A stretch of DNA of 64,000 nucleotides, taken from assembly GCA_017510525.1 (NCBI GenBank), contig JAFWNC010000008.1, positions 11,119 to 75,118 of the forward strand, given 5' to 3'. This stretch comes from Clostridia bacterium. GTDB taxonomy: Bacteria; Bacillota; Clostridia; TANB77; CAG-508. The notes under the pieces were generated by a model. The model was not told where the DNA came from and did not search any database. It saw nothing but the letters and a program-made list of their open reading frames with translations. The translations under genes and the position numbers were made by a program. Shown one piece after another: positions 5,597-49,592 of the stretch (positions are counted from its first letter, which is position 1; the number at the start of each line of letters is the position of its first letter).

Positions 5597-5630
5597 AAAA
5601 TTGGGCGGGGTTTCATCCCTGCCCAATTTT
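5597..5630 (+). terminator. GC-rich hairpin plus T-run; REP-like family 1 variant that also serves as terminator
   Basis: aaaattgggcggggtttcatccctgcccaatttt immediately after the stop codon. Confidence 0.6.
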
Positions 5631-5827
5631 ATCTTATATAAGCTCATTATTTTTTAATATAATATTGCTTTTTTTTAAAACATATAATAAAATAAGGACA
5701 CTATTTAGGGCTTTTACAAGTAATATATCACAAAAAGTAAAAAACTTTTTCTTGATTTTAATATAAAGTGACAATATTTTTAATAATTATAGTGTTTAAT
5801 TATAAGAAAAAGTAAGAGGTGGTAAGG

Positions 5828-8311: not shown

Positions 8312-8440
8312 ATATGTTATCGAGAGTGGACGAGAGAATCGGCTTTATGACTCCACAGCAACCTATTAATTTAGGTGCTAATACCGACAAAGTTACTTTT
8401 ATAGTGCTTTGGATGATGATTTATTAGATAGTATAGATTG
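8312..8440 (+). ncRNA. SAM-I (S-box) riboswitch leader of metK
   Basis: gttatcgagagtggacgagagaatcggctttatgactccacagcaacc...ggtgctaataccgac resembles the S-box core (YTTATCAAGAG...GCAACC...GGTGCTAAT). It sits 5' of metK and is followed by an intrinsic terminator. Confidence 0.55.
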
Positions 8441-33365: not shown

Positions 33366-33974
33366 ATGAGAAGTGTAATCAGAATTACAGCTACAAAAGA
33401 AGAAATAAAAATTACAATAAATGTTGAAGGTGAAATGCCACAGATTTTGGAAGAGTTAGAAGCAAAGATGCCAAGACTAAAGAAATATTATAATAAAGAA
33501 AAAACACCAATTCATATTATTGGAAAAGTTTTAAAAGAAAAAGAAAAAGATGAAATAAGAAAATTAATAGCAAAATCAATAGATGTAAGAGTTTCTTTCG
33601 GAGAAACATCTGAATTGCTTGGTTTACATGCAATCAAAAAGACATATGAAAGTGAAATTGATACATCAGAAACAAAATTCATTCAAGGCTCTCTTCGTTC
33701 AGGGCAAAGAGAAGAATTTACTGGAAGCATAGTAATCCTAGGAGATTTGAATTATGGAGCAGAAGTAATAGCAGGAGAAAATATTGTTGTTTTAGGAACA
33801 CTAAGAGGATTAGCACATGCAGGAGCAAATGGGAATAAGAAAGCTATAATTTCAGCAAATTCAATAGATTGTATACAAGTAAGAATTGCAAACATAGTAA
33901 AAGAAATAGAACCAACAGAAGTGAAATTCCCTTTTATTTACTTAAATGAAAATGATAATATAGTAGTTGAATAA
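33366..33974 (+). CDS. minC: septum site-determining protein MinC
   Basis: C-terminal beta-helix repeats (IVILGDLNYGAEVIAGENIVVLGTLRGLAHAG). Start MRSVIRI follows AAAGGAAG. No minD or minE follows. Confidence 0.8.
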   Translation: MRSVIRITATKEEIKITINVEGEMPQILEELEAKMPRLKKYYNKEKTPIHIIGKVLKEKEKDEIRKLIAKSIDVRVSFGETSELLGLHAIKKTYESEIDTSETKFIQGSLRSGQREEFTGSIVILGDLNYGAEVIAGENIVVLGTLRGLAHAGANGNKKAIISANSIDCIQVRIANIVKEIEPTEVKFPFIYLNENDNIVVE

Positions 33975-33980
33975 AAAAAT

Positions 33981-34013
33981 GTAGGGGCGACGTTAGCGTT
34001 GCCCGATTTTTTT
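33981..34013 (+). terminator. REP-like GC hairpin plus T7 (terminator of minC)
   Basis: gtaggggcgacgttagcgttgcccgattttttt. Confidence 0.6.
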
Positions 34014-34115
34014 GACTTTTGGGGACGCGGGTGGAAATGGGGACGGTTCTCTTTTCCAAGGAAAACTTGGAAAAGAGAACCGTCCCCATTTCCACCCGCG
34101 TCCCCAAAAGTCAAA
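34011..34115. repeat. perfect 105-bp hairpin palindrome (50-bp arms, 5-nt loop)
   Basis: tttgacttttggggacgcgggtggaaatggggacggttctcttttccaag | gaaaa | exact reverse complement. Verified base by base. Confidence 0.9.
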
Positions 34116-34117
34116 AG

Positions 34118-34465
34118 TCATAGGTCTATTAGGTTTGTTAGGTCTAGGTCTAGGAGGATTAGGATTATTGCTATGTATAAATACCAATCTGTGCAGTTTT
34201 CGAAGAATAGGAATAGTAGTATTCCGTAGAGGATTAGGTCGTCGAGTTGTAGGGGAATGTTGAAATGCGACATTATGGTGTTTAGTGTGGTGTTGCGGGA
34301 ATCGGGGGTTTCAATTTGATTTTCGCCAATTTGGGGTTGTAGGGGCATATTGCTAATAGTGCCCCCTACGGTATTGGGTGGGATGTTTTTGGGTTGTGGT
34401 GGCCATGGGTTATTGGTTCTGTATTCATATGGGCTATAGGGCGGGTATATTGTGTTGTATGGCAT
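34118..34465 (-). CDS. small Pro/Tyr-rich protein (MPYNTIYPPYSPYEYRTNNPWPPQP...), possible spore-coat-like; doubtful gene
   Basis: ATG overlaps the stop of the upstream gene (TAATG). A REP-like element (34339-34369) is translated in-frame. Confidence 0.35.
   Translation of the reverse strand: MPYNTIYPPYSPYEYRTNNPWPPQPKNIPPNTVGGTISNMPLQPQIGENQIETPDSRNTTLNTIMSHFNIPLQLDDLILYGILLFLFFENCTDWYLYIAIILILLDLDLTNLIDL
34339..34369. repeat. REP-like element
   Basis: gtaggggcatattgctaatagtgccccctac. Confidence 0.65.
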
Positions 34466-34800
34466 TATTTATCACCGCCTTGTTTTTGTAGTGTTTTGAA
34501 TATTTTTATGTATCTTAAGATTTGAGAGTATTGGTCTATTTTGTTTCTTCTGCTTTCGCGCATGTATGGTTTTAGTGCTTGGAGTAGGTTTGAGTTGTTT
34601 TCGCTTGTATTGTTTGAATCTAGAATTGTTTTTATTTTCATTATTGTGTTTATGTCTATGTTGTCAAAGATATTGTTGGAGCTTGTATTTGTTTCGGTTG
34701 TTTGGGTTGAGGAATCTGGTTTATTGCCGAATAGTGTGGTTGGGTCGATGTTTTTTTCTTTTAAGATTTCTGAGAATTTGTTTAATAAGTCGTCGTTCAT
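34465..34800 (-). CDS. hypothetical small protein, 111 aa (MNDDLLNKFSEILKEKNIDPTTLFG...)
   Basis: GGAGGAAT RBS. Hydrophilic and Asn/Ser-rich. The +strand ORFs covering the same DNA are hydrophobic read-throughs. Confidence 0.5.
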   Translation of the reverse strand: MNDDLLNKFSEILKEKNIDPTTLFGNKPDSSTQTTETNTSSNNIFDNIDINTIMKIKTILDSNNTSENNSNLLQALKPYMRESRRNKIDQYSQILRYIKIFKTLQKQGGDK

Positions 34801-34816
34801 GGATTCCTCCTTTTTT

Positions 34817-34914
34817 ATTGGGTATGCTTTCGTAGAATGGACGAGCAATGCTCGCCCCTACAATATTGGGTATGGCGTTGTAGAATGGGTACATTGCTAA
34901 TAGTGCCCTACTAT
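34817..34914. repeat. tandem pair of REP-like units
   Basis: ttgggtatgctttcgtagaatgg-ACGAGCAATGCTCG-cccctaca, then ttgggtatggcgttgtagaatgg-GTACATTGCTAATAGTGC-cctacta. Confidence 0.6.
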
Positions 34915-35061
34915 TTATGGTTTGTTTTTTAGGTCTTTGAGGATGTTTTCGGGGTTTTGGTTGTTTAATACTTGCTTGGCTTTGTTGATTCCTTGTTCTA
35001 GTTCTTGTTTATCCATTTTAGATAACATATCAAGCAGGGTATTTATATCTTTATTATTCAT
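34915..35061 (-). CDS. small protein, 48 aa (MNNKDINTLLDMLSKMDKQELEQGINKAKQVLNNQNPENILKDLKNKP)
   Basis: Hand-translated. AAAGGAG RBS. Below the ORF-track cutoff. Confidence 0.4.
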   Translation of the reverse strand: MNNKDINTLLDMLSKMDKQELEQGINKAKQVLNNQNPENILKDLKNKP

Positions 35062-49540: not shown

Positions 49541-49592
49541 GTAGGGGCGACCATTGGTCGTCCGAGGACGGGGGTGGAACCCCGCCCCTACA
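49541..49592. repeat. composite REP-like element
   Basis: gtaggggcgaccattggtcgtccgaggacgggggtggaaccccgcccctaca. Confidence 0.7.

Follow-up and report, generated by a model that had tools for sequence, protein, structure and literature searches.

The spacer 3' of minC in an uncultured ruminant-gut Clostridia bacterium carries a perfect DNA palindrome of about one hundred base pairs, and the question raised by this locus is what kind of element it represents and how it came to lie there. The palindrome was found in a stretch of 64,000 nucleotides from contig JAFWNC010000008.1 (assembly GCA_017510525.1), here called the window; positions refer to the window unless preceded by the handle of another contig. 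An initial annotation had placed it at the left boundary of a genomic island.

A repeat search of the window located two inverted arms of 51 nt each, the left at 34010-34060 (+) and the right, its exact reverse complement, at 34066-34116 (-). They are 100% complementary and enclose a 5-nt loop, GAAAA (34061-34065), giving a palindrome of 107 bp (34010-34116). The perfect arms reported initially are thus confirmed, and the palindrome is one base longer on each side than the 34011-34115 given at that time. Each arm contains a 28-nt unit, TGGAAAT-GGGGACGGTTCTC-TTTTCCA, which forms its inner part; a partial GGGGACG motif lies in the outer 22 nt (TTTTGACTTTTGGGGACGCGGG). A 31-mer taken from the arm occurs twice in the window, both times within the palindrome, with 0 occurrences expected in shuffled sequence. 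Folded as single-stranded DNA, the region forms one uninterrupted 51-bp stem at -77.3 kcal/mol (z = -17.8 against 200 shuffles), and one arm alone folds weakly (-3.7 kcal/mol), no better than shuffles. The mirror-image ORFs at 33993-34187 (-) and 33999-34229 (+), regarded as artefacts in the initial annotation, are both present in the ORF list and are a trivial by-product of the palindrome. Rfam gave nothing at this site at gathering thresholds. Matches to animal miRNA precursors at permissive thresholds were all below their own cutoffs and were rejected as generic, structure-only similarity to a long hairpin.

The left neighbour is minC (33366-33974, +; PF03775), which ends 35 nt upstream of the palindrome, in agreement with the description of the palindrome as lying directly after this gene. 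The minC terminator (33981-34013, +), identified from the terminator scan and the repeat list, consists of a REP of a GTAG-tagged family and a T run; its hairpin lies at 33985-34004, and the last four T's of the run are the first four bases of the left arm. We treat it as context, outside the element under study. To the right lies a small ORF of 115 aa (34118-34465, -), whose stop codon is 1 nt from the right arm. It aligns with orthologues in three related contigs (L027, L031 and L035), and its C-terminal half is conserved in the relatives. With minC on the plus strand to the left and this ORF on the minus strand to the right, the palindrome is placed between two convergent genes.

The source assembly has no gene call for the 115-aa ORF. 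None of the three small ORFs at this locus belongs to a significant Pfam family, and a 48-aa ORF gave a sub-threshold FIVAR match. An exact-protein look-up with the long minC ORF, the 115-aa ORF and a 127-aa ORF returned no match, and shorter start sites did match. Within the 115-aa ORF lies a pair of GTAG REPs (34339-34369), and the protein of the window has an extra stretch (..PPNTVGGTISNMPLQPQ..) that is absent from the L027 and L035 orthologues; judged from the alignment, this stretch looks like an in-frame intragenic REP insertion. Elsewhere in the window, a SAM riboswitch (8314-8422; RF00162, 67.7 bits) was the only Rfam match above the gathering score.

An intrinsic (rho-independent) terminator has a GC-rich stem with a U run directly after it. 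The palindrome is followed by GTCATAGG on the plus strand and by AAAAAAATCGGG on the minus strand; neither strand has a U run after the stem, so the palindrome does not qualify as a canonical intrinsic terminator, and the terminator scan lists only the hairpin at 33985-34004 for minC.

That hairpin was described as REP-like in the initial annotation, and it does belong to a repeat family, separate from that of the arms and with about 20 copies in the 64 kb. Its members are GTAG-tagged, GC-rich palindromes (for example GTAGGGGCGACCATTGGTCGTCCG and GTAGGGGCGGGGCTTGTCCCCGCCC), often in inverted pairs, and were found at 2522, 8491, 20750/20775, 23598/23625, 26032/26081, 28555, 29022, 33981, 34339/34369, 34861, 49541/49591, 59971, 60927 and 62050. 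No RAYT for the GTAG family lies within the 64-kb window. Just past the GTAG pair at 49541/49591, the segment 49600-49650 (GGGGACGCGCACC..) has 10 nt (TGGGGACGCG) in common with the outer palindrome arm, an overlap that may be due to chance.

Before a biological origin is considered, it has to be asked whether the palindrome exists in the genome at all, or whether an assembler entered a repeat and came back on the opposite strand. The window matches ENA scaffold XIEF21-1_SAMN15830025_METAG-scaffold_81 without a difference; this is a metagenome scaffold of 115 kb, so that the locus is judged from assemblies rather than from reads. Furthermore, most independent contigs end inside or before the palindrome, and one of them (L008) leaves the arm after 39 nt. 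In four other samples, nevertheless, contigs with this MinC continue into the left arm and stop within the palindrome, with full identity to the window save for the last three bases of L006. One contig from a sample of another study (L002, MEGAHIT k141) covers the left arm, the GAAAA loop and 30 nt of the right arm. In L006 the arm is followed by TTT, the loop in its opposite orientation, which is what a true palindrome should give in a de Bruijn graph. Two Logan contigs assembled at k=31 (L003 and L005) end at 34039, that is at 34009+30, presumably because the first k-mer wholly inside the repeat that starts at 34010 branches the graph exactly at this point. From the other side, the right flank is continuous with 39 nt of the arm in L008, and seven further contigs share genes of both sides, a comparison of gene content only. 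An independent NCBI MAG of another species (L035) has a near-perfect 78-nt palindrome at the same site. K-mers that span the loop must, moreover, exist in the reads. A foldback artefact, one of the possibilities named in the initial annotation, is accordingly very unlikely, since independent assemblies and a comparable palindrome found at this site in another species speak against it.

Two details of the contig ends were observed in addition. After the right flank and 39 arm nt, L008 (scaffold_258, SAMN15830016) continues at L008:3224-3276 with 53 nt of about 58% GC (TCGATCTCGGGAATGTGGTCAAG...), unlike the palindrome. This tail gave nothing in viral contigs or in any fetched locus, and arm plus tail together gave chance plasmid matches only; possible sources are chimerism at the scaffold end, a second allele and an insertion. 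Four independent contigs that approach from the right (L009, L012, L013 and L014) stop at 34144-34182, before the palindrome, in the repetitive sequence GGTCTAGGTCTAGGAGGATTAGGATTA, which encodes the C-terminal LLDLDL of the small ORF.

The first indication of the nature of the arms came from other genomes. A 20-mer of the arm was scanned against viral contigs, GTDB species genomes and JGI metagenomes. It had zero matches in the viral contigs. The one match among the GTDB species genomes falls within coding sequence of a Lachnospiraceae MAG rich in GC and was judged to be due to chance. In the JGI metagenomes it was found in five contigs with GC contents of 0.24-0.42, and four of the five carry further copies of GGAAATGGGGACNGTTC. 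In one of these contigs, L019, a gene for a protein of 259 aa lies between two inverted copies of the unit; in another, L020, the gene enclosed in this way is a degenerate version of it. Searches with the L019 protein gave matches to Pfam Y1_Tnp (PF01797) at 1.4e-13 and to the NCBIfam model NF047646, 'REP-associated tyrosine transposase' (RAYT), at 83 bits against a cutoff of 80. Its only PDB relative is TnpA_REP of E. coli (4ER8), with which the HxH (HaH/HmH) and Y..NPVK motifs align. The protein thus has both a Y1/HUH domain above the curated cutoff and the HUH and catalytic Tyr motifs by which a RAYT is recognized.

A protein search at E<=1e-10 gave 1684 homologues of this RAYT. Four further members (P0049, P0081, P0008 and P0058) were inspected, and all four are flanked on both sides by 1-3 inward-facing units. 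The locus of P0058, the closest homologue of P0049, is the orthologous ROK-RAYT-T2SSF arrangement of a relative and does not come from this genome. In total, six distinct RAYT loci have an inward-facing unit on both sides, with 1-3 copies per side: L019, L020, L021/22, L023/24, L025/26 and L037/38. Their full-length RAYT proteins share 53-87% mutual identity. The proteins are about 253 aa long and possess a C-terminal region that TnpA_REP of E. coli (165 aa) lacks; it has only a weak, sub-threshold HTH_6 match. Many of the homologues listed have no contig longer than 0.9-1.2 kb, about the size of the gene and its flanks; such contigs of about 1 kb fit assemblies that break at the flanking REPs.

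At the RAYT loci the unit has a 7-bp stem, TGGAAAT/ATTTCCA, and a loop of 13-15 nt with an invariant GGGACGGTTC. In 18 distinct copies, 94% of the stem cells of the alignment pair, and two of the seven pairs are changed on both sides. As a single unit folds only weakly, the small REP hairpin rests on conservation and modest covariation, not on energy. Copy number of the family looks low, with 0-3 copies beyond the RAYT flanks per related 20-kb locus. Three tandem REP units, 41 nt apart, were observed at L017:5428-5547, about 80 nt upstream of a tRNA gene (5629-5700).

For the assignment of the arms, a covariance model (R1) was built from 16 RAYT-flanking REP copies and no sequence of the window. 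The copies came from L021, L022, L023 and L025, all found by protein search; from L019 and L020 the second copy only was used, and not the one matching the pattern derived from the window. Searched against the window with filters off, R1 matched 34032-34059 (+) and 34067-34094 (-), each at 48 bits and an E-value of 3.7e-10, which is as high as the scores of training members; the next match had 20 bits. These two units, with a TGGAAA(T)/TTTCCA stem and the invariant GGGACGGTTC in the loop, are inverted copies of each other and face inward, like the copies around RAYT genes. The REPs beside the RAYTs of L021, L022 and L037 (TGGAAATTGGGACGGTTCTCTTTTCCAAA) are 94-97% identical to the inner arm across 29-33 nt, and this REP is the sole similarity between those RAYT loci and the window. 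The outer 22 nt of the arms were found in no other fetched locus. No RAYT was detected in the window by tblastn of RAYT against the 64 kb, and the doublet is the only copy in these 64 kb. One of the roles listed in the initial annotation, a nuclease or resolvase target, comes near to this result, because the arm family flanks genes for an HUH/Y1 transposase.

A paired unit also occurs at another locus. At L037:3297-3365, 3' of secA, lies a degenerate inward-facing doublet (..TCTCTTTTCCAAG-AAAAT-TGAAAAGA..) with the centre of the window palindrome, in which the GAAAA spacer separates the units in a CCAAG-AAAA-type arrangement. The L037 doublet, which reads ..GGACGGTTCTCTTTTCCAAG-AAAAT-TGAAAAGATAACCGCCCC.., aligns with the window over the central ~65 nt. 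At the orthologous spot, L022 has a single copy in the opposite orientation, so that doublets of this design are dispersed and turn over between close relatives.

Occupancy differs likewise at the minC site itself. The three related contigs L027, L031 and L035 share the gene order MreC-MreD-PBP2-MinC, followed by three small ORFs on the other strand and a giant SdrD_B protein. The minC 3' spacer holds one degenerate REP-like unit (13.6 bits) in L027, with a MinC identity of 93%, and GTAG-type repeats only, with no unit of the arm family, in L031 (90%). In L035 (85%; GCA_947628395.1, CANQZP010000001.1), a different, near-perfect palindrome of 78 nt lies directly 3' of minC at L035:3628-3705; it has a 27-nt perfect core, 37 pairs and one bulge, and its arms are unlike those of the window except for the common GGGGACGG. 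The right end of this palindrome is partly repeated 45 nt downstream, and contig L036 stops inside it.

The palindrome is, with a probability of roughly 0.7, a hairpin-forming pair of REPs and as such a non-autonomous element of REPIN-like type. This reading is based on the R1 matches, the inward-facing units at the six RAYT loci and the doublet in L037. It comprises the structural feature of a REPIN, two close inverted REPs within one predicted hairpin; its association with a RAYT, as the same REP unit flanks RAYT genes at six loci in related genomes; and signs of mobility, in the form of differing orthologous sites and the doublet with the same centre 3' of secA in L037. As the repeat flanks RAYT genes in related low-GC gut Clostridia, the palindrome is better understood as a small mobile repeat than as the boundary of an island.

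Mobilisation of the doublet would proceed as follows, by analogy with what is described for IS200/IS605 elements and REPINs (PMC3116915, PMC3479197). Acting in trans from another place in the genome, a RAYT would recognise the hairpin units on single-stranded DNA, and it would move the doublet as a folded single-stranded hairpin into the minC 3' spacer. The perfect arms point to a recent event, and the insertion would have been recent enough for them to stay identical. The doublet would now be passive in the 3' spacer of two convergent genes, where a minus-strand read-through transcript from the small-ORF cluster would fold into a 51-bp RNA stem. A role at the RNA level, for example of such a 51-bp stem at the 3' end of the minus-strand small-ORF transcript, is speculative.

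The palindrome might instead have arisen on the spot and not by transposition of a doublet: snap-back synthesis, template switching or repair directed by a hairpin would have copied a resident single REP into an exact inverted duplicate. The perfect identity of the 51-nt arms, including the 22 outer nt found nowhere else, would be in line with such an event, as would the single degenerate REP-like unit at the same site in L027, the closest relative, and the occurrence of one copy only in the window. Doublets recur, however: one with the same centre lies at a different locus of a related genome (L037), a palindrome of similar design occupies the same site in L035, and L025 has an inward-facing doublet of another GGGGACG hairpin type. 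Local origin is for this reason unlikely. The palindrome can also be read in terms of selection by the host for an RNA or DNA structure for which the REP served as raw material; such a structure might stabilise 3' ends, be cut by RNase III or act as a barrier to transcription of the convergent genes. In favour of this, two species have long, nearly perfect hairpins at this position, whose arms differ but have GGGGACGG in common, and the hairpin of the window is 1 nt past the stop codon of the minus-strand ORF. Yet L027 and L031, relatives of intermediate distance, are without a long hairpin there, and the U run of a canonical intrinsic terminator is absent after the stem on both strands. Selection of this kind, which is compatible with a REPIN-like doublet, is somewhat less likely still than local duplication.

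The island interpretation has the least in its favour. Four consecutive giant ORFs on the plus strand (1622, 3049, 1632 and 1691 aa; 35483-59880) begin within 1.4 kb of the palindrome, the local GC content rises to 0.40 in 34001-35000, and the palindrome could accordingly be taken as the boundary, integration junction or origin of a genomic island of giant surface-protein genes. The first giant ORF encodes a protein with SdrD_B and CLIPPER domains and a hydrophobic segment at the C-terminus, and its position is conserved in the relatives. Against an island, the same gene order, including this first giant SdrD_B gene, is kept in L027, L031 and L035 at MinC identities of 85-93%, and the GC content of the giant genes equals that of the rest of the window. 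GC is 0.25-0.33 throughout, 0.26-0.33 on both sides of the palindrome, and flat save for the REP-rich kilobase 34001-35000, where the rise is due to the GC-rich REPs. There is no tRNA in the window, and no direct repeat of the arm elsewhere in it. None of the marks of an island boundary or att site (a shift in composition, a tRNA or direct repeat, a block missing in relatives) was thus found at the palindrome. A left boundary or integration junction, as put forward in the initial annotation, is most improbable given the conserved synteny, the flat GC, the lack of a tRNA and of a second arm copy, and the replication or transfer origin proposed alongside is without support. Readings as a CRISPR repeat, a sequencing-adapter foldback, the terminal inverted repeats of a transposon, and a telomere of hairpin type or the site of a telomere resolvase were also considered. 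All were set aside, given that the copies are inverted and not direct, that this is a syntenic locus on the chromosome, and that its sequence corresponds to the RAYT-flanking REP.

Hairpins with the same loop motif and other stems were observed in the related contigs. Stems seen around GGGGACG(G) are TGGAAAT in the window and at the RAYT loci, CAGACA in L035, GGTTACA in L025 and GGTTCTTTTT in L022. In L025 (L025:16640-16750), GGTTACA..TGTAACC with a GGGGACG loop occurs as an inward-facing pair about 50 nt apart, and in L022 (L022:2620-2660) the hairpin GGTTCTTTTT-GGGGACGGAGG-AAAAAAGGAACC combines a GGGGACG loop with a different stem. These two hint at a wider family defined by its loop. That the arms belong to an undescribed Clostridia superfamily with an invariant GGGGACG(G) loop and interchangeable stems, and that palindromes have been built repeatedly at the minC 3' site, is a tentative and rather doubtful proposal. 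If true, it would imply a RAYT clade that reads the loop and not a tag at the hairpin foot, and that has produced long perfect palindromes 3' of minC more than once, in different species, owing to a site preference or to use of the hairpin by the host.

To our knowledge, REP/RAYT systems have been studied almost entirely in Proteobacteria. The data reported here supply a REP unit, its RAYT family and an apparently young perfect doublet in uncultured ruminant-gut Clostridia. In the literature searched, the only mention found was that 'Group 1' RAYTs occur in Clostridia (PMC5581495), and a limited text search gave no description of this repeat unit. In practical terms, such repeats break short-read assemblies, as most contigs here stop at the palindrome, and create mirror-image artefact ORFs.

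In IS200/IS605 elements, a Y1/HUH enzyme (TnpA) recognises DNA hairpins and acts by a single-strand mechanism. The present system likewise combines a Y1/HUH enzyme with hairpins, which makes a single-strand mechanism the likely mode. Unlike the ends of IS200/IS605 elements, the two hairpins of the window have no transposase gene between them, and the NCBIfam IS200 model gives the associated RAYT protein a score of 18.9 against a cutoff of 55. The system is also comparable to REP/BIME and TnpA_REP of E. coli (4ER8; PMC3479197), in which the transposase is of the same protein family and its gene is flanked by its REPs. The E. coli REPs, however, are GC-rich imperfect palindromes with a 5' GTAG tag (PMC3479197), whereas the Clostridia unit has an AT-rich stem and the invariant GGGACGGTTC in the loop, and the Clostridia RAYTs, at about 253 aa, have an extra C-terminal region compared with the 165 aa of TnpA_REP.

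REPs of the GTAG/CGTC superfamilies lie preferentially between convergent genes, near both 3' ends, and form dimers whose spacers can be very short, in some families 1-2 bp (Di Nocera et al. 2013, PMC3733652). The doublet of the window resembles them in lying within a few nt of two convergent 3' ends. In contrast to these REPs, its arms carry neither GTAG nor CGTC at an end; GTAG is absent from the whole arm, GACG/CGTC is confined to the loop motif, and as the conserved part sits in the loop the palindrome is not a GTAG- or CGTC-tagged REP. The GTAG family of the window is separate and far more abundant, and includes the adjoining minC terminator.

The closest parallel is formed by the REPINs, REP doublets that form hairpins and are mobilised by RAYTs, of P. 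fluorescens SBW25 and other Proteobacteria (Bertels & Rainey 2011, PMC3116915). As in SBW25, an inverted REP pair of about 100 nt forms one long hairpin in an extragenic position, and the unit is also present at the flanks of a RAYT gene. The spacers of published REPINs are longer and their stems imperfect, and in the GI REPINs of SBW25 the conserved 16-mers start 71 bp apart (PMC3116915), whereas the palindrome of the window has a 5-nt spacer and perfect 51-nt arms. It further differs from the SBW25 REPINs in being low-copy in appearance, in that the RAYT genes flanked by the unit lie in related genomes, with none in the 64 kb of the window, and in its host, an uncultured low-GC Clostridia bacterium.
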